A stretch of DNA of 34,850 nt from Candidatus Sumerlaeia bacterium (GTDB lineage: Bacteria; Sumerlaeota; Sumerlaeia; SLMS01). A model generated the notes under the pieces. It was not told the origin of the DNA. It worked only from the letters and a program-made list of their open reading frames with translations, and did not search any database. The translations under genes were made by a program, and so were the position numbers. The stretch is from assembly GCA_038208905.1 (NCBI GenBank), contig JBBQYG010000024.1, positions 1 to 34,850 on the forward strand, given 5' to 3'. Numbering within the stretch: position 1 is the stretch's first letter; each line of letters opens with the position of its first letter. Of the stretch, positions 6,443-34,850 are shown piece by piece.

Positions 6443-6553
6443 GCCTCCGGCCTTGATAAGCAACCGGAGGCGTTCCATACTTGCCCATCATGCCGAGGTT
6501 TGAGCCCCCAACGGTGACCAGAGTGACTTCCGAAAATCCCGTCGCATTCCAGG

Positions 6554-6643
6554 GTAGCGTGGGCATCTTGCCCGCGCACCTTTGGCAACTCGGGTTCCGC
6601 GTGGCCGCGTCTTGCTGCGGCGCGGGCGAGACGCCCACGCTAC
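6554..6643. repeat. Inverted GTAG-type REP doublet
   Basis: GTAGcgtgggcatcttgcccgcg (6554-6576) ... cgcgggcgagacgcccacgCTAC (6621-6643). Confidence 0.85.
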
Positions 6644-6695
6644 TCTTTTACGGCGTTCACTCTCCCGATTTGGATTTCGAGGGGTGTTCTCCCCG

Positions 6696-9628: not shown

Positions 9629-11989
9629 ATGGGGCGGGGACGGGTAATCGCGGGGATTGGGCTGGGGTGCGCATTGCTGCTGGCGGTGGCGGTGGGGCTG
9701 GCGGGGGCGTTGATCTGGTGGATGTCGGGGAGGTTTTCGCCACCAACGGCGGGGGGTCCAACGGCCGGGGTGCCTGCTCCGCAGCCACCCGCTCCCGCGC
9801 CTGTCCCCGAGCTGATGTCCCAGCCCGCCGATCCGTGGTCGCAGGCGCATGTGGCGCCGCAGGGGACACTGGCGTTCATGCCGCTGCTGACGGATGGCGT
9901 GATGACGTTCGAGGGCCGCCAGTTGGCGGTGTTCATCGCCGAGCAGTGGAACATCGCGCTGCCCGACGACGTGGCGCTGGCCAACACGCTAAGGCTGGCG
10001 AATGCGCTGGCCGACATGAGCCCCTACTCCGACACACGTTCCAAGGCGACGCCGGAGGGCGTTGCCGCCATCGTCAAATTTGCCGCCGCGACCCACTGGA
10101 TGGAGGGGACGCTGACGATGACGGACACCGAGTGGATCGTGGAGGCGACCTTTCACGCGAAGGGGGAGACGCATCAGCGCCGCTTTGCCGCGCCCAAGGG
10201 CGAGCACTTCGCGCTGGCGGCGGCCATCGCCCCGTGGACGGCGGAGCTTTCGGGGTTCGAGCTGACTCCCAAGTTCCGCGGGGAACTCGCGACGCTGCCC
10301 TATGGACCCGACGTGCGCGGAGACCTGGATCCCGTGCTGCTCGCGATGGTGGACAATCCCGACCATCCAAAATGGCGAGAGCTGATGGATGGCCCCAACG
10401 CCACCCCGCATATACGGCTCCAGTATCTGCGCGTGCTGGTGCAGAAGCGGCGCGACGAGGCGCTGTTCCGCGAATCGGATCCCGGCCCCCTCCCGCTGGA
10501 CGCCGAGCCCTGGCAGCGCAAGTCGCGGTGGTTTGTGCTGAAATCCATCGACGAGCTGCCCACCGCCCGGCACGAGGCCATGATCCTGTTGGCGCGCAAC
10601 CCCGGCCAATCGGTGGAGGCCGCGCGGCTGTTCTTCGACAGTTACCGCGGGTCGGAGCGCGACGCGGAATACATCGCGACGGCGCGCCGGTGGCACGGGA
10701 TCGCCACGCCCTCGCCGATTCACGACGCCTGGCTTGGCAACGTCTATACACTCGCCGCTTGGGCCAACCGGGGTGGGGGCTATTCCAACACCGTGTCGCA
10801 GTCGGGCGCCCAGCGCTTCGAGGAGTATCACGGGGAAGCGATCAAGCTCTTCGAGAAAGTCTTCGCGGAGGCGGGGCCGATCCCGTGGGTGGGCGAGCAG
10901 CTCTGCGACGCATACGGATCCACGGGGCAGCGCGAGAAGATGCTGGCGACGCACCGCGCCACCGTGGCCGCGTTTCCCGACTATTATCGCACGTGGGACA
11001 AGGTGCTGTGGTACAGTTTGCCGCGATGGGGCGGCAGCATCGACCAGGTGGCGGACCTGATCGACGAGGCGCTTGCCGGCAGGCCGGATAACGCGCGATT
11101 CGGGCGGCTTCCCTTCACGATATATCAGGCGGAGGCGGGCGTCCTGGGCCGCGGCAACCTGGCGGAGCAGATGGAGGCCGTGTGTGCGGCGAACCCCCGC
11201 GTGCGGCCACAGCTCGATCGCGGAATCGGCATGATGGGCGACGCCAAGGCGGGCCCCCGCGACGCCGTTCACGCGCTGGTTGCCATGATGGTTCTTCGCT
11301 ATTCGGAGGACGACATCCACGATCTCGTCCGCCGCCACCCCGACATTCACCGCTTCATCGGCAACAACCTCAACGCGGCGTGGTCTGGCCGGGCCAGCTG
11401 GGAGGCGCTGATCGCGCACGCCAACATGGGCAACTGGCGCTCTGTGGACGAGATCGTGCAGGATGCCGTGAAGAACGACCCGAGGAACCGAACTGGAAAC
11501 CGCGAGGGCCGCGTGATCATGCGCACGCCGAAGTGGGACCTGATCCTGCGCGCGTATGCGGCGATCATGAATGGCCGGGAGACGGAGGGCATGGCGCTGC
11601 TGGACCAGATTCAGAATCCCGACTTCGACCTGCTGGTGAACATCACCTTCCTGAAGCTGTATGCCGACCGCGCCGATCCCGAAGTGCGCGCGCATTGCGA
11701 CGCCGCGGCCAACGCCAAGCCCGACGATTCGGACTACGCGTATATCGCGGCCTTGGCTGCGCTCCGCGCGGGCGACCAGGAGGCGGCCCGCGCATGGGCG
11801 GAGAAGGGCGACGCGATCTACAAGACCGACCAGAGCGAATCCATCCGCCGTGAAGTCCGCCGACTCGTCCTCGGCATCGACGAACCCCGCCCCGAGGACA
11901 TCGCTCCCGCCAAAATCGACGACAACGATGAGGACCCCGCGGAGGAGGATCCCGCCGAGGAGGAAACTCCGCAGGATGGGTTCCCCTGA
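9629..11989 (+). CDS. Membrane-anchored DUF4034-type helical protein, paralogue 1
   Basis: AW..RGGGY..TVS..G..RF.E and YSLPRWGGS motifs; N-terminal TM helix; collinear with 12070-14340. Confidence 0.8.
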   Translation: MGRGRVIAGIGLGCALLLAVAVGLAGALIWWMSGRFSPPTAGGPTAGVPAPQPPAPAPVPELMSQPADPWSQAHVAPQGTLAFMPLLTDGVMTFEGRQLAVFIAEQWNIALPDDVALANTLRLANALADMSPYSDTRSKATPEGVAAIVKFAAATHWMEGTLTMTDTEWIVEATFHAKGETHQRRFAAPKGEHFALAAAIAPWTAELSGFELTPKFRGELATLPYGPDVRGDLDPVLLAMVDNPDHPKWRELMDGPNATPHIRLQYLRVLVQKRRDEALFRESDPGPLPLDAEPWQRKSRWFVLKSIDELPTARHEAMILLARNPGQSVEAARLFFDSYRGSERDAEYIATARRWHGIATPSPIHDAWLGNVYTLAAWANRGGGYSNTVSQSGAQRFEEYHGEAIKLFEKVFAEAGPIPWVGEQLCDAYGSTGQREKMLATHRATVAAFPDYYRTWDKVLWYSLPRWGGSIDQVADLIDEALAGRPDNARFGRLPFTIYQAEAGVLGRGNLAEQMEAVCAANPRVRPQLDRGIGMMGDAKAGPRDAVHALVAMMVLRYSEDDIHDLVRRHPDIHRFIGNNLNAAWSGRASWEALIAHANMGNWRSVDEIVQDAVKNDPRNRTGNREGRVIMRTPKWDLILRAYAAIMNGRETEGMALLDQIQNPDFDLLVNITFLKLYADRADPEVRAHCDAAANAKPDDSDYAYIAALAALRAGDQEAARAWAEKGDAIYKTDQSESIRREVRRLVLGIDEPRPEDIAPAKIDDNDEDPAEEDPAEEETPQDGFP

Positions 11990-12069
11990 TGGCGTAGGCA
12001 CGGCAATCCGCCTCATCGGAAGGATCGGACTGATCCCCCCACCATTCACCGCAGGGCACAGGAGCGCCC

Positions 12070-14340
12070 ATGACCAGAAAGCGAATTGCCACCAGCATTG
12101 CCATCGGTTGCACCATTGGCCTGATCGCCCTGATCGCGGGCGCTGGGCTGATCGTGTGGGCGGGTGCACGGTACTTTCCCCAGCTTGGCGATTCGCTTTC
12201 GTCGCCCGGGGGTCGTGGCGCGTCCTCGCGGGGAGAGGATCGCCCGCTCCCCCCGCCCAACGCCAAGCTGATGTCCCAGCCCGCCGATCCGTGGCGGCTT
12301 CCCACGACGCCAAGCCAGGGCACGCTGCTCGTGCTGCCCTTTGTCATGGATGGCCTGATGAACCCCGTGGGGAATGATCTGGCCGGTTTCATCATCGAGC
12401 AGTGGAGCATCCTCCTGCCCGATGGCGTCGCCATCGCCGACCCAGTCCACGTGCGCCAAACGCTGGCCTCGATGAGCCCCTACGCGGGCGACAAGGCCGT
12501 CGTGCTTCCGATGAACATCACCTCCGTCGTGGGCTATGTCGGCGCGACGCACTGGGTGGAGGGCATCGTCACGGAGGCCAACGGCGAGTGGATCGTGGAG
12601 GCCACCCTTCACGTTTCCACCGCCAAGCACGAGCGGCGATTCGCGGCGCCCGTGGGCGAGCACTACACGCTCACTGCGGAGATTTCCGGATGGATCGCTG
12701 CGGAATCGGGCTTTCAGATGACCGAGGAGGAACGCGCCGACCTGGGGAGGTTGCCGCTGGGACCCGAACTGCGCGAAGGCGGAGGAGAGACAATCCTTGC
12801 AATGCGCGCCGATGCCGATCACCCGAAGTGGGCCGAGCTGCTGGCGTCGCCCCATGCGACGGTGAACGCGAGGGTGGAACATGCGTTCGCGCTTGTTCGC
12901 AGCATCAATGACGCCGCCCGGCTCCGCGCCGCCGATCCCGGCCCGCTCCCCTCCGACGCGCCGCTGTGGCAGCGCAAGGTCCGCCGCATGATCCTAACCG
13001 CGATGGACGAGCGCGTCACCGCGCAGCACGAGGTGCTGCTGATGCTGGCGCGCCATCCCGGCCACGGCGTGGAGGCGAGGCGCTACCTGCAGGACATGCT
13101 CGGTGACGGCGAGATGCGGCTGGATTATGTGGAGGCGATGCAGCGCTGGCACCAGCGCGCGCCCGCGACGGCGATGAACGACGCGCTCTATGGCAACGCC
13201 CGCCAGAATTCCGCGTGGGACTATCGCGGAACCGGCTATGCGGAAACCGTCTCGGCGCGCGGCTGGGAGCAGTTCCGCGAAAGTAACCAGATCGCGAGCG
13301 ACATGTATCGCAAGGCCATCGCCGCGGCGGGGCCGATCCCCTCGATCGCGGCAAAGCTGGCCACCGTTTATGGCGCGGAAGGCAACCGCGCGGAGATGAT
13401 CGCCCTGCACCGCGCGACCATTGCCGCCTATCCGGACTATGGCGAGACATGGACGACGATGATCTACTACACGCTTCCCCGGTGGGGCGGCAGCGCCGAG
13501 GAGGTTGCGCTCCTGATCGACGAGGCGATGGCAAGCCGACCCGACAATTGCGCATTCGGGCACTTCCCGATGCGCATCTACTACATGGAGGCGCAGTTGA
13601 CGGGGGGACGCCTGTATGACCTGATGATCATCTACGCGAAGACAAATCCCAAGGCCAAGGAGCAGATCCTGCGCGGCATCGAGCGCATGGGCTCCGAGAA
13701 GTCCACGCTGCAATATGCCGCCAAGGCCGTCGTTGGAATCGCCATGGTGGAAGGCAACGCCGACTCTGCCATCGAGATCGTCCGCAGATGGCCGGAGGTG
13801 CATCACCAATTCTCGCTCGAAGGCGAGGAGGACTGGTATGGGATCGGGATGTTCTTCGCGCTCTATTCGCACATCAATCTGGGAAACTGGAAGGCCGTGG
13901 ACGAGCTCATGGAAGTCTCACTGAGGGACGACGCGCAGTATGAGCACGACATGAATGTGATCCACAACCGCATTGTGGGAATCCCCGGTTGGCAACCGAT
14001 CCTGGCGGCCTATGCCGATATCATGAACGGGCGCCTGGAGGCGGGCCTTGCGCGCCTCGACGCCATCGCGAATCCCGAGGCCGACATGATGTCGGCCATC
14101 ACATTCCTCAAGCTGTTCGCCGGCCGCGTGGACCCCGGGGTGCGCGAGCTCTGCGACCACGGCATTGAGACAAAGCCCGAAGACGCGGGTTACCGCTACA
14201 TCGCCGCCCTCGCCGCCCACCGCCTCGGCGACAGCGCGGCCGCGAGATCGCACATCGAGGAGGGCGAGAAGGTCTTCAAGAAGGGTCACAACGAGGGATG
14301 CCGCCGCGAGGTGCGGAAGTTGGCATTGGGGGAGGAGTAG
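12070..14340 (+). CDS. Membrane-anchored DUF4034-type helical protein, paralogue 2
   Basis: AWDYRGTGYAETVSARGWEQF and YTLPRWGGS; RBS AGGAG before ATG. Confidence 0.82.
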   Translation: MTRKRIATSIAIGCTIGLIALIAGAGLIVWAGARYFPQLGDSLSSPGGRGASSRGEDRPLPPPNAKLMSQPADPWRLPTTPSQGTLLVLPFVMDGLMNPVGNDLAGFIIEQWSILLPDGVAIADPVHVRQTLASMSPYAGDKAVVLPMNITSVVGYVGATHWVEGIVTEANGEWIVEATLHVSTAKHERRFAAPVGEHYTLTAEISGWIAAESGFQMTEEERADLGRLPLGPELREGGGETILAMRADADHPKWAELLASPHATVNARVEHAFALVRSINDAARLRAADPGPLPSDAPLWQRKVRRMILTAMDERVTAQHEVLLMLARHPGHGVEARRYLQDMLGDGEMRLDYVEAMQRWHQRAPATAMNDALYGNARQNSAWDYRGTGYAETVSARGWEQFRESNQIASDMYRKAIAAAGPIPSIAAKLATVYGAEGNRAEMIALHRATIAAYPDYGETWTTMIYYTLPRWGGSAEEVALLIDEAMASRPDNCAFGHFPMRIYYMEAQLTGGRLYDLMIIYAKTNPKAKEQILRGIERMGSEKSTLQYAAKAVVGIAMVEGNADSAIEIVRRWPEVHHQFSLEGEEDWYGIGMFFALYSHINLGNWKAVDELMEVSLRDDAQYEHDMNVIHNRIVGIPGWQPILAAYADIMNGRLEAGLARLDAIANPEADMMSAITFLKLFAGRVDPGVRELCDHGIETKPEDAGYRYIAALAAHRLGDSAAARSHIEEGEKVFKKGHNEGCRREVRKLALGEE

Positions 14341-14342
14341 GG

Positions 14343-14480
14343 GGTGTAGGGGGGATTCGGGACGTATTACCCGAGTCGGCGGTACACTGAGGAGCGTACT
14401 ACTCTCTCGTTCCGAACGGGGCGATGAGGGTCGCCTGAAAGATGAGATCGGGCGAAGAAAACATGAAGTTTCCCTATGCT
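14343..14480 (+). ncRNA. Candidate multi-stem structured RNA (unassigned)
   Basis: Closing stem 14343-14354/14469-14480 around hairpins at 14354-14377, 14381-14400, 14402-14430 and 14431-14455. Non-Watson-Crick pairs are G-U on the + strand. Hand-folded only. Confidence 0.4.
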
Positions 14481-14556
14481 TGGTGTAATTGAATGGGGTA
14501 CGCTCCCTCCCGTCGGTGCATTCTGGCGGCGAAACCCAAAACGGGCAGAGTGTGTG

Positions 14557-15447
14557 ATGGACGACCCTCGCAATCATGAGTTCGGCGGTAACTGGACCTC
14601 GCAGAAACTGGGGGTACTTGAGGCCTACTTGAAGCGCTACACGACCGCGCTGAAGGAGCAGTCGTTTCGCAAAGGATACATCGATGCATTCGCTGGCACT
14701 GGTTACCGGCAGTCCATACGTGGGTTGGAATCAGGGGCGGATAGTCTGGGCCTTGCATTCCCCGAATTGGGCTCGCAGGAGCCGCAGCAGCTACTGGAAG
14801 GATCGGCACGTATTGCACTCAAGGTTGAACCCGGCTTCGACAAGTACATCTTTATCGAGAAGCGTGCAGGGCACTGCGCTGCGCTGGAGTCACTGCGCAA
14901 CGAATTCCCCGACAAAGAGGTGGTTATCAAGCAGGGCGACGCCAATGCCGAGATTAGAGAACTGTGCCAGAAAGACTGGAAGAGGCATCGGGCAGTCCTA
15001 TTTTTGGATCCGTATGGCATGCAGGTTGAGTGGGCAACGATTGAAGCAATTGCGAGGACAAAGGCCATCGATCTTTGGATCCTTTTCCCGTTGGGGATTG
15101 GCGTGAATCGGTTGCTCAAGAATTCAGGGGACATCCCCCAAGGCTGGAGAGACTGCCTGACCCGACTATTCGGAACTGCCGAGTGGTTTGATGCGTTTTA
15201 CAAGCGGGAGGAAGCACTGACGTTGTTTGGAGAAGAAACGGAACTTGTAAAGGTTCCTATGGAAACTATAGGCCGATTCTACGTGGACCGACTCAAATCC
15301 ATTTTCGCCGGGGTAATAGAGGAGCCAGGGGTCCTTCGCAATTCGTCAAATTCCCCGCTCTATTTGCTGTGCTTCGCCGCTGCGAACCCCAAAGGCGCCA
15401 AAATAGCGGTAAGAATTGCCAAGCATCTCCTGAAGGATCTCAGATAA
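14557..15447 (+). CDS. tcmP: Three-Cys-motif partner protein (SAM-methyltransferase-like fold)
   Basis: FGG.WT..KL..L..YL, YIDAFAGTG, GSARIAL, FIE, GDAN, FLDPYGMQV.W; adjacent to DUF5131. Confidence 0.9.
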   Translation: MDDPRNHEFGGNWTSQKLGVLEAYLKRYTTALKEQSFRKGYIDAFAGTGYRQSIRGLESGADSLGLAFPELGSQEPQQLLEGSARIALKVEPGFDKYIFIEKRAGHCAALESLRNEFPDKEVVIKQGDANAEIRELCQKDWKRHRAVLFLDPYGMQVEWATIEAIARTKAIDLWILFPLGIGVNRLLKNSGDIPQGWRDCLTRLFGTAEWFDAFYKREEALTLFGEETELVKVPMETIGRFYVDRLKSIFAGVIEEPGVLRNSSNSPLYLLCFAAANPKGAKIAVRIAKHLLKDLR

Positions 15448-16178
15448 TGCCTGCTAAATCCTCGATCGAATGGACCGAGTCCACTTGGAACCCCGTCACC
15501 GGATGTTCGAAAATCAGCCCGGGCTGCAAGCACTGCTATGCGGAGCGGATGGCGGCGCGGCTGAAGGCGATGGGGCAGGCGTCGTATGCCAATGGGTTCG
15601 AGGTGACGCTGCAGAGGCACGCGCTGGAGGTGCCGCTGCGGTGGAAGAAGCCGCAGATCATCTTTGTAAATTCGATGAGCGACCTGTTCCACGACAAGGT
15701 GCCCGACGAGTATATACACGAAGTCTTCGATGTGATGAACCGGGCCGACTGGCACCAGTATCAGATATTGACGAAGAGGCCGGAGCGGGTGGCGGAACTG
15801 GACGCTTCGCTCTGCTGGGCGCCGCATATCTGGATGGGCGTGAGCGTGGAGACGGCGAAGTACAAACCCCGCATCGATCTGCTACGGAGTACGGGAGCGC
15901 ACGTGAAGTTCCTCTCGCTGGAGCCACTGCTCGGCCCACTCGGAAAGCTGAAGCTGAAGGGAATCCATTGGGCAATCGTCGGCGGGGAGTCCGGCCCGGG
16001 GGCGCGCCCGATGGAGGAGGAGTGGGTCCTGGACATTCGGGAGCAGTGCCACGCGGCCAGGATGCGCCCGGCCTTATACAAGCCGGGGGGCGGAGTGAAC
16101 AACAACCCGGCCGGGCGAATCCTGGCGGGGCGCACATGGGATGAGATGCCGAGCGCGGACGCGGTCCTTCCGGCCTAA
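15447..16178 (+). CDS. DUF5131 / phage Gp37-Gp68 family protein (three-Cys, radical-SAM-like)
   Basis: SSIEWT..TWNPVTGCSKISPGCKHCYA, FVNSMSDLFH, QILTKR, LSLEPLL, IVGGESG, GRTWDEMP; TAATG coupling to tcmP. Confidence 0.93.
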   Translation: MPAKSSIEWTESTWNPVTGCSKISPGCKHCYAERMAARLKAMGQASYANGFEVTLQRHALEVPLRWKKPQIIFVNSMSDLFHDKVPDEYIHEVFDVMNRADWHQYQILTKRPERVAELDASLCWAPHIWMGVSVETAKYKPRIDLLRSTGAHVKFLSLEPLLGPLGKLKLKGIHWAIVGGESGPGARPMEEEWVLDIREQCHAARMRPALYKPGGGVNNNPAGRILAGRTWDEMPSADAVLPA

Positions 16179-16251
16179 AGGTCTCCCTTTCCCCGCTTTT
16201 CAGAAAGACTTCAGTCTCGCTCCGAGTTTACCCTCCGGAGGTCCTTCCCCC

Positions 16252-17994
16252 ATGCGCCTGATCCTCGCCCTGCTATCGCTGCTAATTCTCGCCACGGCGG
16301 GGCGCGCGGGGGTGGTGCCGCCGGTGTTGGTGAGGAAGGAGATCGCCCGGTGGGCGGAGGCTCCGGCGGGGGTGGTGTCGGTGGTGGATGCAGGGACTTC
16401 GACGACGTTCACGCTGTTTGTGCCCGACCGCATGACGAAGGCGGCGGATGGGTCCACGACGTTGACGATGCATTTCCACGGGGCGGCGTGGTTTGTGGCT
16501 CAGGAGCATGCGCGGCGGGGGGCTCGGCATCCGTTGCTGGTGGCGAACGCGCGGGAGGGCGACGCGGCGTATGAGAACGATGTGATGCGCGAAGGCGTCT
16601 TTCGGAAGGTGTTGGCGGTGGTGGAGGAGCGGGCGAAGGCGCGGGTGGCGCGGCTGGAGGTGTCGAGTTTCAGCGGTGGGTATTCGGGCGCGCGGGGACT
16701 GCTGCGCCTGCCCGCGGTGGAGCCGATGATCGCGACGCTGATGATGAACGATTCGCTGTATATATCAGACGCAACCGATTCGATGCCGGAAGACCGGCGG
16801 CCGGACTTGGCGAAGTTGCAACCGTTCGTGGACTTCGCGAAGAAAGCGGTCGCGGGGGAGCGGACGTTCCTGATGGAGCATTCGTCGACGCCGTCGCTGC
16901 GGTCGGTGGGGCCGAAGGATTGCTCCCGCGCGATCATGGCGGCGCTGGGGATCGCTCCGCGCGATGTGGCGCCGGGATCGATCCCGGCGGCGCGGGCGAG
17001 CACGGACTTTCCCCTGATCCAGCGCGCCGACGTGGGCGGGGCGCATTTCTGGTGCTATCGCGGTGAGAACATCGCGATCCATCTGGCGCATGTGCGGAAC
17101 CAAGCCGATCACTGGCGCGCGCTGGCGGGGCAAACGCCGCTTCAGGTGGAGCCGCCGGCGATGCCGAAGCGGGCGATTCGCCCGCCGGAAGCATCCTTTG
17201 GCGGAGAGTCGGTCGAGTTCGACCTCGGCACGAGCTATACGCTGTATATACCGGCGAACTACAAGGTGCCCAAGGATGGCGCGGTGGAGCTGACCATCCA
17301 CTTCCACGGGGCGGTGTGGTTTGCGATTCAGGAGCACCTGCGCCGGGGGCTCGACGCGCCGCTGGTGGCGCTGTATGCGGGCGAGGGCTCCACGGTGTAC
17401 AAGCGGCAGTTCGAGGATGCGGCGCGGTTTGGCCAGCTTCTGCGCAAGGTGGAGGCGATGCTGAAGGAACGCGGCGGCCCGGCGGAGACGCGCGTGGCCA
17501 CGGTGGATGTGACGAGCTTCAGCGCGGGCTATGGCGCCGTGCGCGAGATCGTGAAGGTGCCGGAGAACGTGGCGGTGCTGCGGCGGGTGATCATGGCGGA
17601 TTCGCTCTATGGCAGCCTGGACGAGGCGGAGCTGGCGAAGGGAAACCGGGTGGTGGTACCGGAGCACGTGGCGCCGTGGGCGGACTTCGCCCGGCACGCG
17701 GTCAAGGGCGGGAAGACCCTTGTCCTGACGTATAGCGATATACACACGCCCAGCTACGCCAGCACGCGGGAGGTCTCCACCGCCGTGGTCGCCGCGCTGG
17801 GCCTGAAGTCCGCGCCGGTCGAGCGCGGCAGCATCCCCGGAGCCACCGATCCCGACTACCCGCTGATGCTGCGCGCCGACGCGGGCTCCTTCCACGCCTG
17901 GGGCTACGAAGGGAAGGACGCCGTGGTCCACATGACGCTGGCGCGGCACATCGCGGAGGTCTGGGAGGCGCTGGATCGGGGAGGGGAACCCTGA
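16252..17994 (+). CDS. Secreted protein with two tandem alpha/beta-hydrolase-like domains
   Basis: Signal peptide; duplicated motifs HFHGA.WF..QEH.RRG, SFS(G/A)GY, DSLY, D(F/Y)PL..RAD.G..H.W.Y.G....H. Confidence 0.78.
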   Translation: MRLILALLSLLILATAGRAGVVPPVLVRKEIARWAEAPAGVVSVVDAGTSTTFTLFVPDRMTKAADGSTTLTMHFHGAAWFVAQEHARRGARHPLLVANAREGDAAYENDVMREGVFRKVLAVVEERAKARVARLEVSSFSGGYSGARGLLRLPAVEPMIATLMMNDSLYISDATDSMPEDRRPDLAKLQPFVDFAKKAVAGERTFLMEHSSTPSLRSVGPKDCSRAIMAALGIAPRDVAPGSIPAARASTDFPLIQRADVGGAHFWCYRGENIAIHLAHVRNQADHWRALAGQTPLQVEPPAMPKRAIRPPEASFGGESVEFDLGTSYTLYIPANYKVPKDGAVELTIHFHGAVWFAIQEHLRRGLDAPLVALYAGEGSTVYKRQFEDAARFGQLLRKVEAMLKERGGPAETRVATVDVTSFSAGYGAVREIVKVPENVAVLRRVIMADSLYGSLDEAELAKGNRVVVPEHVAPWADFARHAVKGGKTLVLTYSDIHTPSYASTREVSTAVVAALGLKSAPVERGSIPGATDPDYPLMLRADAGSFHAWGYEGKDAVVHMTLARHIAEVWEALDRGGEP

Positions 17995-18108
17995 GAAGCG
18001 GGGTCGCTCCACATACCAAGCGAAATTTTGAGGGCTCCAAGCGGGGTTACTTGAATTCCATCGGTGTGTCGCCTAGATGTCACGGTAACTTCAATTCGGA
18101 GGTATCCG

Positions 18109-19632
18109 ATGATACGTCTGGCGATTGGCACGGCGGCGATCTGCGCGCTTTTGGGTTCGGCCGCAAACGCGCAGTTCATTACGGCGGAGAGCGAGAACAA
18201 CAACGCGGAGTCGGGCGCGGATGGGCCGGTTGGCCCCAACATCACCGTATCTGCGGCGATCGGCAGCAACAGCGATCAGGACTGGTATTACTTCGATGTG
18301 CCGACGGCGGGAATGATCGACATCACGCTGAACCATGCCTCGGGACGGGATTTCGACTTCTTCCTGTACAAGCCGACGGGGAGCCATGTCCTGAGCGGCC
18401 AATCGAGCGCGCGCCCGGAGACGGGGAGTTATTATGCCACGGAGCCCCTGCAATACAAGATCAAGGTCACGCGCCATAGCGGGACCGGCGCCTATACGCT
18501 GAACGTGAAATTTCCCGGCGGCTCCGCGACGCCGACGCCCTCGCCATCTCCCACACCAACGGCAACGGCCACGCCCAGCCCGACGCCGGGCGGAACGGCG
18601 ACGCCAACCCCCACGCCGACGCCGACGCTGACGCCATCGCCGACCCCCTCCCCCACTCCCACGGGATTTGGACCGCGGCCAAGCAAGCCAAGCAATCTGA
18701 CGGTGTTTATCACGGGCAACGCCGCCGATTCCGCCAACCAGCCCGTGGGCGGTCCGGGTCTGTTGCTGATGGGCGGGAACTTCGACGTGGACGAGGCCTT
18801 CGTCAACCGCGCCTATCCGGTCGCCAATGGCGGGGACGTGGTGGTGCTGAGGACGTCGGGGACCAACGGCTACAACGGCTATCTGTACAACCTGACGACG
18901 GGGCCACTGAAGCCCAACTCTGTGGAGACGATGGTCGTCAACACCGTGGCCAAGGCCAACACGGCCTATGTGGAGTGGGTGATCAACACGGCGGAGTTTG
19001 TGTACATGGCGGGCGGCGACCAGTCCACCTACCTGAACTACTGGAAGGGCACCAAGGTGGAGGACGCCATCCGGACGGCTTACAACCGGGGCGCGGTGAT
19101 CGGCGGCATCTCCGCCGGGCTGGCGGTGCAGGGCGAGTTCATTTATGACCCCGACGGCGTGACGGCGGTGATCAGCAGCGAGGCCATCGCGAATCCCTAT
19201 CGCAGCTCGATGATCCTCTCCGGCGACTTCCTGAACCTGCCGCTGATGGACAATATCATCACGGATTCCCACTTCCGCGACCGCGACCGGATGGGGCGGA
19301 TCTTCGCCTTCATGGGTCGGCTCAAGAAGGACGGCACCACGCCAGCAATCACGGGTATCGGCATCGGAGAGGACACCTCGATGTTCATCGATGCCTCGGG
19401 CATCGGCACCGTGGATGGCGACAAGGACGTGTATGTACTGCGCGAAGACGGCCTGACATCGCTGGTGCAATGCGTGAGCGGCCAGCCGCTGATCTACAAC
19501 AACGTGCTCAGGACGAAGCTGAACGTCGGCGGAACCTTCAACTTCAACACCGGCGTCGGATCCAGCCCGGCGATCCGCCTGAGCCTAAACGGGGGCAACA
19601 GCACGCCGTTCTCGCCGAATCCGCCGTACTGA
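18109..19632 (+). CDS. Secreted cyanophycinase-like peptidase (S51) with N-terminal PPC domain and Pro-Thr linker
   Basis: GGAGG RBS; signal peptide; LLLMGG, AGGDQ, GISAG (Ser), DSHF..RDR.GR (His), GIGED (Glu). Confidence 0.88.
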
Positions 19633-19635
19633 TAC

Positions 19636-19751
19636 AGAAGGGAAAGGCAGGGAAGGCGGGAATACGGAGGAGGGGGGCTGAAATCCGGAGCATGCGGCGG
19701 CATTAACCGCCGTTCCCGTCTTTTCCGCTGTTGCCGCCGTTCCCCGCTTTT
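19636..19751. repeat. Opposed degenerate 9-mer tandem arrays between convergent genes
   Basis: agaagggaa aggcaggga aggcgggaa tacggagga (19636-19671) versus ccgccgttc ccgtctttt ccgctgttg ccgccgttc cccgctttt (19707-19751). Confidence 0.6.
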
Positions 19752-20484
19752 AACCTACCGGCGCCGTCACACCCGTGGGGCGGTCGATGACCTTGTCGAT
19801 GATGCCGAACTTGATGGCTTCCTCGGGCGAGAGGAAGTTGTCGCGGTCGCAGGCCTTGGTGACCTCGGCGACGGACTTGCCGGTGTGGTGGGCGATGACG
19901 TTGTAGACCATGTCGCGGACGCGCATCATTTCGCGGTACTGGATGTGGAGGTCGGTGACGGAGCCGCGCGCGCCGCCGAGGGGCTGGTGGATCATGATGC
20001 GCGCGTGGGGGAGGGCGCCGCGCTTTCCCGCGGTGCCGGCCAGCAGCAGCAGCGATCCCATGCTGGCGGCCTGCCCGATGCACACCGTGGCCACGTCGCA
20101 CTTGATGATCTGCATGGTGTCGTAAATGCCCATGCCCGACGTGATGACGCCGCCGGGCGAGTTGATGTAGAAATTCACGTCCTTGTCGGGGTCCTGGGTT
20201 TCGAGGAAGAGGAGCTGTGCCGTCACCAGGTTCGCCACGCGGTCGTCGATGTCGCGGCCCAGGAAAATGATGCGGTCCTTGAGCAGGCGCGAGTAGAGGT
20301 CATAGCGCTGCATTCCGCGGTCGGTTTCCTCGATGACCATGGGGTTGGGGACGTACCAGCGCTCGTAGTCCTCGTCCTCGGCCATGGGGGTGTTGCCGTG
20401 GACAAGGCCCAGGTCGCGGGCGCGCTCCTGCTGCTCGCGAAGGCCGCGGCGAAGTTCGGCGGGAAAGTGTTGGACGATGGACAT
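19750..20484 (-). CDS. clpP: ATP-dependent Clp protease proteolytic subunit
   Basis: [45 protein letters not shown] before ATG 20484. Confidence 0.97.
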
Positions 20485-22978: not shown

Positions 22979-23266
22979 CAAATTTCCTCTCCGCATGGCG
23001 GATTGAATTCTTGCAAAACGGGCGATGACGAGCAGCCTGCGGCCTGTGGGGGGTGGGTCAAGGATTGGATTTGGAGCGGGTTGGAGGCCGATCAAGGCCG
23101 TATGCGCGGCATTCCCTTCGCTCCAAACAGTTTTATTGACCCTGCCGGGTGGCGCCGAAAGCCTTTCCAACGATGCACGGCCCGCGAGGCCGGGGGGTCG
23201 CAATTAACCTGCCACCCCGGGTCGGTCTCGGGGCTTTGCCCATCCAGAAGGAAGAGGAATCTCTCA

Positions 23267-25738
<2,472 letters not shown>

Positions 25739-25930: not shown

Positions 25931-26080
25931 GCGGTGCGCCGTGTGGCTCACCCCACCTCCTCCAAACCATTGCCAGAGCGCGGCCGCTGGTGGGGCGCCT
26001 GCTCGCCGTGGACCAACCCGCGAGCGATCCTGCGGCGACGCGGGGCGACGGCGTGGCTCCATGCCCCTCACCCTCAACTG

Positions 26081-26110
26081 CTGCGCCCCCCGGGTTACCG
26101 GGGGGCGCGG
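26081..26110. terminator. Strong hairpin downstream of the nuclease gene
   Basis: gcgccccccgg-gtta-ccggggggcgc, perfect 11-bp stem; no clear U tract. Confidence 0.45.
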
Positions 26111-26138
26111 GGTTGCTGCGGTTTGACTTTGCGACGCT

Positions 26139-27764
26139 TTAGAAGCTGGCGGTCGCGGTTAGGTTGACGGTAGAAGCGGTGTAGCCGTTTACGGAGACGT
26201 ACCAGGTGCCGGTGCTGAGGGCGGGGGATGTGGTGGTGGAGATCGTCACCGATTCCGCAGAGCCGTTCAGGTAGGGGCGGAAGTCGTAGCTCGTCGTGGT
26301 GGCGTAGCCGGTTTTCTTCACATAAAGGTCTCCGTCGCCGGAACCTGTCATGTTGATCAGCACGCTCTTGGCGCCGGAGGGAACGGTGATGGTGTAGTTT
26401 TTCCAAGCGCCGGAGGCGACGCTGACGTTTGACACGCTGAGGAGGGTGGTGCTACCCGGCGTGGCGGTGGGGGTGGGCGTAGGTGTGGGTGTGGGCGTGG
26501 CCGCGGAGCCCGTGGTGATCGTAGCGCTGAGGGTGAAACTGGAGGCGGTGTAGCCGTTGACGCTGATGTACCAGCGACCGCTGGACACGGCGGGCGAAGT
26601 GGTGCCGGTTACGGTAACAGTCTCTGCGCTGCCGCCCGCATAGGGGCGGAAGTCATAAAGGCTGGAGGTCGGTTGACCGGCCTTGCGCACGTAGAGATCG
26701 GCGTCCCCCGTGCCGCCCTGCACGATTTGGAGCTGGGTGGCGTTGGAGGGGAGGTCAATGTAGTAGTGGACCCAGCCGGCGGCAGCGACGGAGCCGGAGA
26801 CCTGGACGCCGCTGCTGAGGGCGCCGCTTGCGGGAGTCGGGGCGGGGGTGGGCGTTAAAGTCGGCGTCGGGGTGGGTGTGAGGGTCGGCGTCGGGGTGGG
26901 TGTGAGGGTCGGTGTGGGAGTTGGCGTGGGGGTGGAGCTGCTGCCGCCGAATATAGCGGGTACCCACTCGGGGCGGTCGATGAAGGGGTTACGGTTGTTC
27001 TGCCAGTTGGTGTAGATGAGGTGGTTGCGGCGCTGTTCGCGGGCATTCACGGGATCGTTGGTGTTCCACTGGAGAAGGGTGGAAAGGACCGCCATTCTCG
27101 GCTGGCCCGTGGAGGGAAGGGTCTGGCCGAGAACGAGGTCGGGCTCGTTGGAAACGTCGCCGCTGTAGCGCAAGTCCATGTAGAACATGGAGCGGGCGAC
27201 ATCGCCCTTCACGTCGTCCCAAGGTTCGAAGCGGCTGTTGCCTTGACGGTTGACTGTGCCGGCGGGGGCGTTGAAAACGGGGTAGGTGTTGCCGCCGACA
27301 ACGATGTCGAACACGAAGTTATTGCGTGTCGAGTTGATGTTCTTTTCGCAGGCATAGAGGTGGTGCAGGTCGGTGTAGGCGGGATAGCTCTCCACGTCGA
27401 AGCCGTAGGACTTGGGCCAGGAGTGCTCGCGATTCCAGACGATGCCAGTGGCGGAGCCGTCGCGCTGGGTCTTGGCGAGGGAGCGGTTGCTGTAGATACA
27501 GCGGATGTTGCTGGCGTTACTTGGATCTTCGTCGATCTGCTGCAGCGCCGTCCAAACTGTTGCGTAGGTCTTCTTGCTGTGGTTGTCGATGATGTCGTGC
27601 AGGGATTGGCGAAGAGCCGAGCCAGACTGGCCTTCGGCGGCGGTGTAGTATCCGGCGGGAGGAGCGTACTGGGCGAAGCCCGTGGCGGGGAGGGAACTCA
27701 AAGCAAGGAGAGCGAAGGCGCATAATGATGAGCTGCGCTTGGCACAGGACACGAGCGAGTACAT
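26139..27764 (-). CDS. Secreted endonuclease I family (Bsn-like) nuclease with Pro-Thr linkers and two PPC domains
   Basis: WNREHSWPKS, TDLHHL, NSTRNN, EP.D..KGDVAR..FYM..RY, E..RN, NRNPFIDRPEW; PPC motif GD.DLYV....T...YDFRPY..GS.E twice. Confidence 0.93.
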   Translation of the reverse strand: MYSLVSCAKRSSSLCAFALLALSSLPATGFAQYAPPAGYYTAAEGQSGSALRQSLHDIIDNHSKKTYATVWTALQQIDEDPSNASNIRCIYSNRSLAKTQRDGSATGIVWNREHSWPKSYGFDVESYPAYTDLHHLYACEKNINSTRNNFVFDIVVGGNTYPVFNAPAGTVNRQGNSRFEPWDDVKGDVARSMFYMDLRYSGDVSNEPDLVLGQTLPSTGQPRMAVLSTLLQWNTNDPVNAREQRRNHLIYTNWQNNRNPFIDRPEWVPAIFGGSSSTPTPTPTPTLTPTPTPTLTPTPTPTLTPTPAPTPASGALSSGVQVSGSVAAAGWVHYYIDLPSNATQLQIVQGGTGDADLYVRKAGQPTSSLYDFRPYAGGSAETVTVTGTTSPAVSSGRWYISVNGYTASSFTLSATITTGSAATPTPTPTPTPTATPGSTTLLSVSNVSVASGAWKNYTITVPSGAKSVLINMTGSGDGDLYVKKTGYATTTSYDFRPYLNGSAESVTISTTTSPALSTGTWYVSVNGYTASTVNLTATASF

Positions 27765-28434: not shown

Positions 28435-30495
28435 ATGAAGAACGATCCCCGACGTATTGTACCCCTTGGCGTGCTTGCGGCCCTAGCCCTGGCAGCGTCG
28501 CAATCGCAGGCGGAGACGTTGGCGGTGCTCCGCGCGGGAAATTTGATCTATCGCGTGGACACGTTGAACGCCGCATTGGCCTCTCCGGCGGTGGCGTTGG
28601 TTGGCTTTGTGGATTCCGGGGAGCAACTGGACTCCATCGACGTGCGCCCGGCGACGGGGGAGCTGTATGGCGTGAGCAACCGGGAGCGCATCTATCGCAT
28701 CGATGTGGCGACGGGCCGCGTGGCGCCGGTGATCGAGGGTCGTTTCTCGGCGACCAACTTCTCTCCCTATAACATAGACTTCAACCCGGTGGTGGACCGC
28801 ATTCGCCTGCTGGGTGCCGGGGGCAAGAACCTGCGCCTGCATCCCGATACGGGTGTGCAGGTGGCCGCGGACGGCGACATCGCGTATCAGGAGTCCGGCG
28901 GTGTGACTCCGAGAATCGCGGCCATTGCCTATGACAACAACCGGGCCGACGCGACGGTGACGACGTTGGTGGGCATCGACACGGCGACTCGGCAATTGGT
29001 GACGATCGGTTCCCGTGGGAGCGCGCCGATTTCACCCAATTCGGGCACGGTGATTCTGGCGGGCCGCGCGGGTATCAATCCGGTCGGGGGCCCGGGCTTT
29101 TCGGCGTTGGACATTTCTGGCGCAACCAACGCGGCGTACTTTACCAATAATCCCTTTGGCGATACCGCCGACCTGTATGTGATGGACACCGCCAAGGGCG
29201 GAGTCCGGCACATCGGCACGCTGCCGGGCGATATGCGCTCGCTGGCGGTGCTTCCCGCGGTGCCGCGCGAAGTGATCGCGGCAATCACCCAGGATGGCCG
29301 GCTGATCACCTTCTATTCGGACTTTCCCACCTCGCTCCTGTCGGATGATTCCATCACGGGCCTCGCGGGCGGAGTCGTTCTCGGCGATCTCGACCTGCGG
29401 CCCGCGACGGGCGAGCTGTTCTCCATCGGCAGCGACGACCGGCTCTATCGCGTGTCGCCCACGGGCGTTGCAACCGCGGTTGGCGGGCCGATCATTCCAA
29501 GCCCGACGGAAGGCCTGGCGGGTTTCGACTTCAACCCGAGCGTTGACCGCATCCGTGTCTCGGCGGCCAACGGCATCAACCTGCGCCTGAATCCGAATGA
29601 TGGCCTGCTCGTCGCCCAGGACACGTCGCTGGCCTATGCCAACGGCGATCCCAATGCGGGGGATTCGCCCACCGTGGTGGGCGCGGCGTATTCGGGCAAT
29701 GTGCCCGCCTCGCCCATGACCACGCTGTATGTGATCGACAATGTGCAGGGCGTCCTGGCGCGGCAGGGTTCGATGGGCAGCGTGCCCGTCTCGCCGAACG
29801 CGGGCCAGCTCTTTACGGTGGGATCGCTCGGCGTGGAACTGGACGGCAACCTCGGGTTCGACATCTCCGGCAGCAGCGGCATCGCCTACCTTGCCGCGGG
29901 AACGTTGGGGCTCGCCGGTGGAACCTCCGCGTTTTTCCACCGGGTTAACCTGCAAACGGGGACGCCGATTCCCGTGGGCCTGATCGGCGAGGGAGAATCC
30001 ATCGCCGGCATGACCGCCATGACAACGCCGAGCGGCAACCCCGTCGTGGTGATCGCCGCCCTGGGCCCGACGCAGTGGACGCCCACCACGGTGAGCCCCT
30101 TTGCGCCGCCGTTCTTCGACGCGGAGGATGGCCTGATCATCGGCTCCTTCGCGAATCCGGAAAACACCTTCGGCTTCTGGCAGACCTCTCGCGAGCTGGC
30201 GGCACTTCCCATCGGGCGCTATCGCATTCGCATGGAACTCGCTACGCTGCCCGCCACCGAAGGCGCACGGCGTCCCGAGCTGCGCGTTCGCCTGTTCAAT
30301 GCGGACAATACACTGAGCAGGTTTGCGCTCCTCGCCAATCCGATCCCCGGCGACACCGCGCCGACCTTCCTCAACGTGTTGTGGGAGAGCGACGGCACAA
30401 CGCCGTGGCGCATCGCGCTGGACCTGCTTTCCTTCCAGCCCGACATCCAGGGCGGCTATCGCATCACGGCGATCTCCGTGTCTGCGCTGGAGTAG
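28435..30495 (+). CDS. Secreted protein with two DUF4394 domains and an unassigned C-terminal domain
   Basis: Twice D.RPATGEL, DFNP.VDRIR, NLRL.P..G, AY, TTL..ID, F...DISG; signal peptide; AAAGGA RBS. Confidence 0.88.
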   Translation: MKNDPRRIVPLGVLAALALAASQSQAETLAVLRAGNLIYRVDTLNAALASPAVALVGFVDSGEQLDSIDVRPATGELYGVSNRERIYRIDVATGRVAPVIEGRFSATNFSPYNIDFNPVVDRIRLLGAGGKNLRLHPDTGVQVAADGDIAYQESGGVTPRIAAIAYDNNRADATVTTLVGIDTATRQLVTIGSRGSAPISPNSGTVILAGRAGINPVGGPGFSALDISGATNAAYFTNNPFGDTADLYVMDTAKGGVRHIGTLPGDMRSLAVLPAVPREVIAAITQDGRLITFYSDFPTSLLSDDSITGLAGGVVLGDLDLRPATGELFSIGSDDRLYRVSPTGVATAVGGPIIPSPTEGLAGFDFNPSVDRIRVSAANGINLRLNPNDGLLVAQDTSLAYANGDPNAGDSPTVVGAAYSGNVPASPMTTLYVIDNVQGVLARQGSMGSVPVSPNAGQLFTVGSLGVELDGNLGFDISGSSGIAYLAAGTLGLAGGTSAFFHRVNLQTGTPIPVGLIGEGESIAGMTAMTTPSGNPVVVIAALGPTQWTPTTVSPFAPPFFDAEDGLIIGSFANPENTFGFWQTSRELAALPIGRYRIRMELATLPATEGARRPELRVRLFNADNTLSRFALLANPIPGDTAPTFLNVLWESDGTTPWRIALDLLSFQPDIQGGYRITAISVSALE

Positions 30496-30522
30496 CCTGT
30501 CCACACGGCGGCACCAAAATCG

Positions 30523-30561
30523 ACGAGCCCCGGAATGACAATCGGTCATTCCGGGGCTCGT
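30523..30561. terminator. Bidirectional hairpin between convergent genes
   Basis: acgagccccggaatgac-aatcg-gtcattccggggctcgt, perfect 17-bp stem. Confidence 0.7.
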
Positions 30562-30579
30562 AGTGTTCGGTGGCGGCGG

Positions 30580-31164
30580 TTATTCCTTCTTCAGCGCGCT
30601 ATCCAGTGCGGCGATCAGCTCGGGGCTGTCGGGCTTCACCTTGGATGTGAAGCGGTTGACAATGCGGCCGTTGCGATCAATCACGAACTTCTCGAAGTTC
30701 CAGCCGACCTCTCCGGGGAAGGGAGACGTCGTGCCGGTGAGCGCGGCATACAGGGGGCTCTTGCCATCGCCCTTGGTCGGCATCTTGGCCTTCAGCGGAA
30801 ACGAGACGTTGTACTTCGTCGCGCAGAACTCCGCGATGTCGGCGTTCGAGCCGGGCTCCTGTCCGCCATAGTCGTTGGAGGGGAACGCAACGACCACCAG
30901 GCCTTGGTCCTTGTAGCGGCGATAGATCGTTTCCAGCCCCGCGTACTGCGGCGTATATCCGCACTTGGAGGCGGTGTTCACCACGAGGACGACCTTGCCG
31001 GAATACTCCTGGGCCAGGGTACCGCTGGTGCCGTCGGCATTTACATAGGGGATCTTGGTGAGGAGGTTGTTGGTGGGCATGGTGGCGACGACTTCTCCGG
31101 GGGCGAGGGTAGGCGAGATCACGGCGAGCAACGCAAGTACAGCGACACAAAGCAGGCGACGCAT
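30580..31164 (-). CDS. Exported Cys-type glutathione peroxidase family protein
   Basis: VNTASKCGYTPQY, FPSN.YG.QEPG, WNFEKF; signal peptide. Confidence 0.95.
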   Translation of the reverse strand: MRRLLCVAVLALLAVISPTLAPGEVVATMPTNNLLTKIPYVNADGTSGTLAQEYSGKVVLVVNTASKCGYTPQYAGLETIYRRYKDQGLVVVAFPSNDYGGQEPGSNADIAEFCATKYNVSFPLKAKMPTKGDGKSPLYAALTGTTSPFPGEVGWNFEKFVIDRNGRIVNRFTSKVKPDSPELIAALDSALKKE

Positions 31165-34464: not shown

Positions 34465-34802
34465 ACGGGTAAGCCAAAGTGGTACAGCATTGGGGTTGAA
34501 TCCCCACTTGGGTTGATCATGGTCCAGAAGGAACGGCTCGCCTTGGCGGCGGACAGCACCGACTGACGCTCGCGAGGCGGGAGCGCGGCGAGCGCGGCTT
34601 CGAGGCGTTGCGTCACGGTCTCCGCCGCCTTGGGCAGTGGGATGGCGACGGGTGCGCGCGGCTTCGGCTTTATCGCGGGGATCAGCTCCGCCACGCGCTC
34701 GGTGGATTGCACCTGTGTTCGATTGAACCCGGTGGGCCGATACGCCATCCACAGGTAACTCACCACTAGCAATGCAAGCACCACGGCGGCACCGATGAGC
34801 AA
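34465..34802 (-). CDS. Partial or remnant membrane-anchored hypothetical protein
   Basis: TM-like LIGAAVVLALLVVSYLW followed by a protein-like stretch. The 5' end is lost at the fold-back and the frame runs antisense into the Ogt gene. Confidence 0.35.
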
Positions 34803-34850
34803 TCGGCGTAACTTGCTAGTGGTGAATTACCTGTGGATGGCGTATCGGCC
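34735..34850. repeat. 38-bp inverted repeat reaching the last base of the window
   Basis: 34813-34850 is the reverse complement of 34735-34772 with one mismatch. Confidence 0.9.

Follow-up and report, generated by a model that had tools for sequence, protein, structure and literature searches.

We found that the 138-nt multi-hairpin stretch at 14343-14480 on the + strand, which lies inside the 34.85-kb window (the whole stretch of DNA that was analyzed), is best explained not as a unit of its own but as the left junction of a strain-variable insert, together with the first part of that insert's 198-nt untranslated leader. Its hairpins are real, and on balance we think it probable that the stretch is junction and leader sequence private to this strain, its multi-hairpin shape following from base composition and from the joining of insert and flank. 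An earlier, sequence-only reading had proposed an RNA that serves the two genes immediately downstream, tcmP and a DUF5131 gene. If true, that idea would provide an RNA partner for an uncharacterized radical-SAM-like defense pair and hence a hint about its substrate. Our results argue for the opposite: other genomes have the pair but no such RNA, and the structure owes part of its form to where the insert happens to meet the chromosome. The features of the locus are as follows.

12070..14340, + strand: upstream gene, 756 aa, with a weak DUF4034 match (Pfam) and the stop codon TAG at 14338-14340
13918..14577, − strand: antisense ORF of 219 aa that spans the spacer and overlaps both flanking genes
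14328-14361, + strand: run of G tracts, a four-tract G-quadruplex pattern by regular expression, which spans the stop of the upstream gene and overlaps the 5′ arm of the enclosing stem
14343-14353 with 14470-14480, + strand: enclosing stem, 11 bp by RNAfold
14343-14353, + strand: 5′ arm of the enclosing stem, native flank common to the sister strain (contig L112)
14354-14377, + strand: hairpin 1, −11.4 kcal/mol, 8 bp with an 8-nt loop; native flank in its first 5 nt, strain-specific thereafter
14381-14400, + strand: hairpin 2, weak, −5.7 kcal/mol
14402-14430, + strand: hairpin 3, 12 bp with one bulge and a GAAC loop, −14.9 kcal/mol
14431-14455, + strand: hairpin 4, 8 bp with a 9-nt loop, −10.8 kcal/mol
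14470-14480, + strand: 3′ arm of the enclosing stem, within the insert, carrying an in-frame ATG at 14476
~14359-16245, + strand: strain-variable segment composed of the 198-nt leader, tcmP, the DUF5131 gene and a 67-nt tail; left edge from contig L112, right edge from metagenome run X4
14557..15447, + strand: tcmP (three-Cys-motif partner protein), TIGR04474 E 2e-60 and PDC-M41A E 1.9e-119
15447..16178, + strand: DUF5131 gene (phage Gp37/Gp68-type, radical-SAM-like), PF07505 E 2.2e-93 and PDC-M41B E 5e-111
16179-16245, + strand: 3′ tail of the insert, C/T-rich, with one unit of an 11-12-nt motif that is found in tandem elsewhere in the genome
16252..17994, + strand: downstream gene, native, with likely start ATG 16252 and a signal-peptide-like N terminus

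The stretch lies within a gap of 216 nt (14341-14556) between the stop codon of the 756-aa gene and the start of tcmP. That start is best placed at ATG 14557, since alignment to the TIGR04474 and PDC-M41A profiles sets in at residues 3-12 of this reading and homologues have their starts 3-8 codons earlier; the in-frame ATG at 14476 appears unlikely as a start. The ATG of the DUF5131 gene at 15447 overlaps the stop codon of tcmP (TAATG), an arrangement that implies translational coupling of the two genes.

Folding of the isolated 14343-14480 segment with RNAfold returned the same drawing as the sequence-only reading, namely four hairpins and an enclosing stem at the same coordinates. The + strand reached an MFE of −60.0 kcal/mol, against a mean of −43.5 (SD 3.72) for 200 dinucleotide shuffles, so that z was −4.44 and 0/200 shuffles folded equally well. 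The − strand gave −41.7 kcal/mol, 18 kcal/mol above the + strand, with a z of −2.85 and 2/200 shuffles as good. Taken without the enclosing stem, hairpins 1-4 (14354-14455) folded at −47.1 kcal/mol (z −3.98, 0/200), with an MFE structure frequency of 0.44, and the same z of −3.98 was obtained for the 200 nt upstream of tcmP at this locus. The G-quadruplex pattern at 14328-14361 has loops of 7, 4, and 4 nt; only three of the tracts are present in the sister strain, the fourth being part of the insert.

The claimed architecture did not survive intact when pair probabilities in the isolated 138 nt were set against those in four wider contexts of 241 to 701 nt. Hairpins 1, 3, and 4 held. Hairpin 1 had a probability of 0.998-0.999 in the three contexts that include its own 5′ arm, and hairpins 3 and 4 stood at 0.99 and 0.92 in all contexts. 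The mean pair probability of the enclosing stem, on the other hand, fell from 0.87 in isolation to 0.00-0.004 in the four wider contexts, and that of hairpin 2 from 0.98 to 0.00-0.006, both being displaced in longer transcripts by a long-range helix between 14389-14400 and ~14496-14509. Hairpins 1, 3, and 4 are therefore thermodynamically robust on the + strand, and formation of hairpin 2 and the enclosing stem requires an RNA with its ends precisely at 14343 and 14480.

How exceptional such a fold is in this genome was gauged by fitting MFE on dinucleotide counts over 6030 windows of 138 nt drawn from it at random. The composition-adjusted residual of the stretch was −2.86 SD, and 42 of the 6030 windows (0.7%) were equally good; since the tail of this background is partly made of real palindromic repeats, the 0.7% overstates pure chance. 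On a fixed 23-nt grid over both strands of the 34.85-kb window, 37 of 3020 windows, at 13 other places, equaled or beat the stretch, the grid windows being placed without boundary optimization and the coordinates of the sequence-only reading being boundary-optimized. Some of these places are palindromic repeats or unique spacer palindromes, and three lie within Pfam-supported genes, at 12490-12627 in the upstream gene, at 23162-23299 in an H+-PPase gene and at 29165-29302 in a DUF4394 gene. Because background windows match the stretch, shuffle z values near −4 cannot be called rare in this genome, which has 66% GC and a G skew, and we caution that such a value arises about once per few kb here.

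As to strand, it had been pointed out that every noncanonical pair is G·U on the + strand and would be a mismatch on the other, and the G·U pairs are indeed real, making up 11 of the 46 pairs in the + strand MFE fold. However, G exceeds C strongly in this part of the locus (skew +0.36 to +0.38 at 14225-14449), a bias that on its own promotes G·U pairing on the + strand, so the G·U asymmetry is not independent evidence of selection at the RNA level.

With composition corrected for, several intergenic segments of the window fold better than the stretch, at 34708-34845, 1013-1150, 30430-30659, 25991-26151, and 19620-19780 (residuals of −7.5, −4.9, −4.5, −3.3, and −3.5 SD, respectively). In the first three, both strands have similar scores, as is typical of DNA palindromes. 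The segment at 1013-1150 has relatives on contigs C30 and C12 of the same genome, and 19620-19790 holds a 45-nt motif that is present on five other contigs.

Strains were compared by means of a metagenome contig, L112, and of Logan contigs of four metagenome runs aligned to 11500-19000. Contig L112, from a sister strain, is 99.18% identical over 4270 nt and diverges at 14358/14359, the upstream gene being 99.2% identical up to 14358. This breakpoint falls within hairpin 1, so that one half of the enclosing stem belongs to the native flank and the other to the insert. Past 14358, L112 continues with a repeat of ~310 nt with long inverted arms and then with a MITE of ~146 nt; the contig ends inside this MITE, so the alternative allele is seen in part only. 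In run X4, a 1544-nt contig with nine differences fits 12893-14344 and is followed by 92 letters that are unlike the window, depth is 0 at 14512-14762, and another contig fits 16246-16583 with 100 unfitted letters on its left side, which places the right breakpoint at 16246 on the evidence of a single short contig from a single run. The near-identical contigs of runs X1 (one difference and one gap over 14131-14566) and X2 (identical over 14436-15277) were the only other copies of the hairpin region to align.

The segment 14359-16245 is thus a candidate for a recently acquired two-gene insert that fills a short native spacer between two native genes, although the sister lineage would look the same if mobile elements had inserted at 14358 and the DNA up to 16245 had then been deleted. 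Between 14375 and 15574, GC content is 0.49-0.59; it rises to 0.61-0.70 in the 3′ half of the DUF5131 gene, and the flanks have about 0.65-0.70, so that the insert leader and tcmP are lower in GC than their neighborhood. When the leader was confined to the insert (14359-14556), z was only −2.81 and 1/200 shuffles was as good. Whatever becomes of the hairpins, the comparison yields a precise map of a strain-variable defense-cargo slot between two native Sumerlaeota genes.

On the left of this slot lie two adjacent paralogues of about 770 aa, at 9629-11989 and 12070-14340, which share 44% identity over the C-terminal 349 aa and a weak DUF4034 match. Within the order, homologues of the upstream gene reach no more than 34% identity and occur in 9 of 24 genomes, so the two paralogues represent a lineage-specific duplicated family. 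On the right, the edge at 16246 lies 6 nt before ATG 16252, which is likely the true start of the downstream gene to judge from its predicted N terminus. Orthologues of this gene were found in 3 of 10 genomes of the family, aligning from residue 40-58 of the long ORF; their neighborhoods share no other gene with the window, and an empty site was not found by synteny in them. No recombinase was found among the neighboring genes scanned.

The repeats of the sister allele are common in this genome. The ~146-nt MITE (L112:4582-4703) has terminal inverted repeats of ~23 nt, and a 122-nt piece of it gave 41 blastn matches in this genome, of which ~30 are full-length at 97-100% identity, so the element appears to have been active recently. 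Many of its copies lie at contig ends, and it is probably the cause of many contig breaks in the assembly; at C46:25724-25988, there are two tandem copies 143 nt apart, and a diverged relative is present at 6510-6693 of the window. The ~310-nt repeat (L112:4269-4577), each inverted arm of which is itself palindromic, sits where this genome has the tcmP-DUF5131 insert, and copies with 77-89% identity occur on six contigs (C121:5193-5502, C5:19696-19914, C191, C18, C200, and C26). The 11-12-nt C/T-rich motif of the insert tail, at 16186-16203, recurs in tandem at C248:1-33, C188:1-80, and C19:36925-36990, once adjoining a copy of the 146-nt MITE.

The two genes of the insert correspond to the PADLOC candidate system PDC-M41, as both component profiles match and the genes are adjacent on the same strand; PDC-M41 is listed in PADLOC as a candidate defense system only. 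The pair is patchy among relatives, being present in 11 of 60 with at most 51% identity, and it is widespread beyond them: 225 stretches of species-representative genomes from many phyla encode a relative, and the best 80 of these 225, at 53-64% identity, come from Acidobacteriota, Nitrospira, Myxococcota, Gammaproteobacteria, Planctomycetota, and others. Viral contigs contained only four tcmP relatives, at 34-37% identity. The core of the DUF5131 gene (15465-15700) attracted a pile-up of many foreign contigs from all four metagenome runs, with a summed depth of up to 164, and these communities therefore contain abundant DUF5131 genes that are conserved in DNA sequence. Searching the PDB by sequence gave no relative of TcmP and only chance-level hits for the DUF5131 protein. 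As judged by titles and the beginnings of abstracts, no experimental study of the pair or of an RNA partner was apparent in the literature; the name PDC-M41 was not found in the literature search, and the name DUF5131 occurs in one paper, PMC9477430.

At 19 of 74 homologue loci, a same-strand ORF ends within 30 nt of tcmP on a crude stop-to-stop ORF map, which would leave no room for such an RNA there. We scanned 11 of these upstream ORFs, and eight matched a Pfam family; the set comprised six N6/N4 DNA methylases, one type III Res endonuclease, one DUF5131 protein, one AbiEii-like ATPase, and two ORFs of no family. The methylase genes (loci L035, L052, L065, L073, L076, and L107) and the type III Res gene (L074) lie 2-14 nt upstream of tcmP. 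Because the pair often follows a type III-like methylase or Res gene in other phyla, its gene neighborhoods suggest that TcmP and the DUF5131 protein may be an accessory of restriction-modification systems that acts on DNA. That the pair often sits behind type III-like restriction-modification genes is in itself an observation of use.

The hairpins had no counterpart at the other tcmP loci examined. The 231-nt spacer gave nothing better than E 0.27 by blastn and nhmmer against 80 tcmP loci, and the best blastn match of the stretch in 60 relatives was 27 nt long (E 0.01). A covariance model, built from the single sequence and its MFE structure, recovered itself with 170.6 bits in a search of the window and 90 tcmP loci; there were two spurious hits in all, of 22 and 18 bits, the former on the wrong strand and lacking hairpins 3 and 4. 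The best hit of the model in 100 relatives had an E value of 0.8, and the 74 other genomes of the phylum gave no hit. These searches yielded no homologue to align and hence no compensatory base changes in support of the helices, covariation being one of the checks that the sequence-only reading had named. Folding told the same story: the 200 nt upstream of tcmP at the first 45 homologue loci had a mean z of −0.11, the same as 45 control windows, and among all 78 homologue leaders only one fell below −3 (L099, −3.4), which is a plain terminator of the preceding gene. The leader at this locus folds more strongly than 77 of the 78 homologue leaders and than all 45 control windows. The sequence comparisons thus show that the hairpin sequence is unique to this genome and that other tcmP loci lack a counterpart. 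Of the proposal that the stretch is a leader, guide or substrate RNA, what stands is its position in the untranslated region upstream of tcmP, at the left edge of the strain-variable segment; the tie to the SAM-using pair is not supported.

Known element types were searched for in parallel. In agreement with the statement that the stretch matches no recognized family, Rfam 15 returned no match at gathering thresholds over the whole window, and at E ≤ 10, the region 14200-14700 gave three hits only, of 9.6-10.9 bits against thresholds of 41-145. Neither a tRNA, a tmRNA nor a remnant of an integration target was found. No intrinsic terminator or sigma-70-like promoter was detected on the + strand outside genes between 13800 and 16600, and a T-run is absent after each of hairpins 1-4; we rejected an intrinsic terminator of the upstream gene, as 14341-14556 holds no terminator-like site and no T-run follows the hairpins. 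The 4.24-Mb assembly contains a single match and no second copy, and short-word blastn added nothing beyond chance matches of 13-18 nt. As the assembly consists of 301 contigs and has a completeness of 93.9%, unassembled repeats could escape this search. A MITE- or REP-like repeat was rejected because the stretch is single-copy, its strands fold asymmetrically (z −2.85 versus −4.44) and the 5′ arm of its outer stem is native flank. Sites of the attC type carry the core motifs R″ (RYYYAAC) and R′ (GTTRRRY), which flank an imperfect palindrome. Both motifs are absent from 14300-14600 and 16150-16270 (the motifs are reverse complements of one another, so that the + strand scan covered both strands), and an integron gene cassette was rejected on this ground.

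A pseudogene remnant was also rejected, in the spacer by blastx of 14301-14600 against 21 ORFs upstream of tcmP homologues (best E 0.054), in the leader by tblastx against 90 tcmP loci (best E 0.033) and in the insert tail, where a match to locus L012 with an E value of 0.008 reflects low-complexity C/T-rich sequence. Phage and plasmid records gave no blastn match at E ≤ 1. Inverted or direct repeats or target-site duplications joining the left and right ends of the insert were sought, and none was convincing; when the enclosing stem is read as DNA, just 6 of its 11 positions match.

We propose that the insert places a putatively coupled tcmP-DUF5131 pair, the candidate PDC-M41, between two native genes. 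The region would be transcribed either by read-through from the upstream gene or from an unrecognized promoter; neither a terminator nor a sigma-70-like promoter was found between the upstream gene and tcmP, and of 17 sequencing runs listed as carrying this DNA, none is registered as RNA. The stem-loops would have no dedicated function and would at most give the tcmP mRNA some generic secondary structure, in its spacer or leader, that might slow exonucleolytic decay or damp translation initiation. Their multi-hairpin shape would be a by-product of the G-rich composition and of the joining of insert and flank.

Among the alternatives, the one to which we give the most room, while still holding it to be unlikely, is a functional, lineage-private cis-acting leader of the tcmP-DUF5131 mRNA, made up of hairpins 1, 3, and 4 and the long-range helix between 14389-14400 and ~14496-14509. 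Such a leader would act on the stability of the mRNA, on tcmP translation or on read-through out of the upstream gene, and the short upstream ORFs at 14442-14489 and from 14491 onward might contribute in an attenuator-like manner. The local folds are strong, well defined and confined to the coding strand, and two architectures compete according to the extent of the transcript; the 3′ arms of hairpins 3 and 4 have GGGCGA in common, and each could pair with the 5′ arm of hairpin 4; and the leader belongs to the same strain-variable segment as the genes and resembles tcmP in GC. Yet conservation was seen at 0/90 tcmP loci, homologues do without such a leader, some of them directly abutting the preceding gene, and no hairpin is followed by the U-tract of a terminator. 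Hairpin 1, moreover, needs 5 nt of native flank, and the leader limited to the insert reaches a z of just −2.81. Far more improbable, in our judgment, is that hairpins 1, 3, and 4 form a structured RNA private to this strain, which either came in with this copy of TcmP-DUF5131 or was co-opted for it; if true, this would be a sensor-like leader or an RNA that is modified or bound, and the locus would be the first PDC-M41 locus with an RNA component. Equally hard to credit is an independent small RNA that would act as guide, scaffold or substrate of TcmP-DUF5131, by analogy with retron and DRT noncoding RNAs. It would have the right place, directly upstream of the pair and on the same strand, a compact multi-stem fold with a z of −4.4, and two uncharacterized proteins without a PDB relative by sequence to serve. 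Against it stand the 225 loci of the pair across many phyla, with none of the 90 examined by sequence and covariance model, nor any of the 78 folded leaders, showing such an RNA; several homologues have no upstream spacer at all; and the closed architecture, which vanishes in wider context, depends on native flank that is not part of the segment carrying the genes.

The stretch might instead have acted, if ever, as DNA, as the relic of a REP- or MITE-like palindrome or of a recombination site at which the cassette, or an earlier occupant of the spacer, entered, which we regard as doubtful. The position is a hot spot, holding in the sister strain the ~310-nt MITE-like repeat and then the ~146-nt MITE; intergenic palindromes abound in the genome, and this window has several; and the element coincides with the very edge of the variable segment. 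But it resembles no repeat family of the genome, and its − strand folds much worse, whereas true DNA palindromes in the window score alike on both strands. The 6 of 11 matching positions of the enclosing stem, the lack of an inverted or direct repeat linking the left and right ends, the missing attC core motifs at both ends and the lack of a recombinase among the neighboring genes scanned all count against it as well. The related suggestion of the sequence-only reading, a structured end of the mobile unit that delivered the pair, is not supported: the breakpoint cuts the structure, so that the unit includes neither the enclosing stem's 5′ arm nor the first 5 nt of hairpin 1, and there is no matching right end, flanking repeat or second copy.

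Set beside known systems, the stretch recalls retron msr-msd and DRT-type noncoding RNAs in being a multi-stem candidate directly 5′ of a defense-type operon and on the same strand. Those RNAs lie upstream of defense enzymes, are conserved with the enzyme and show covariation. Here, in contrast, there is no counterpart at 90 homologous loci, and no reverse transcriptase domain was found in the 12 ORFs of the window that were scanned. With REP- and MITE-type palindromic repeats (cf. REPIN-RAYT systems), it shares an intergenic location, the ability to form hairpins and the site of a MITE insertion in the sister strain, but it is single-copy, folds asymmetrically on the two strands and has neither terminal inverted repeats nor family members. 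The downstream genes agree with PDC-M41 in matching both component models and in their patchy distribution as mobile cargo; PDC-M41 as catalogued consists of two proteins and has no RNA component, and the hairpin stretch occurs in no other locus examined. The likeness to structured 5′ UTRs of acquired operons is drawn by analogy: as in ordinary structured 5′ UTRs and intercistronic spacers, the stretch is noncoding, lies on the coding strand between same-strand genes, forms stable local hairpins and is found in this strain only.
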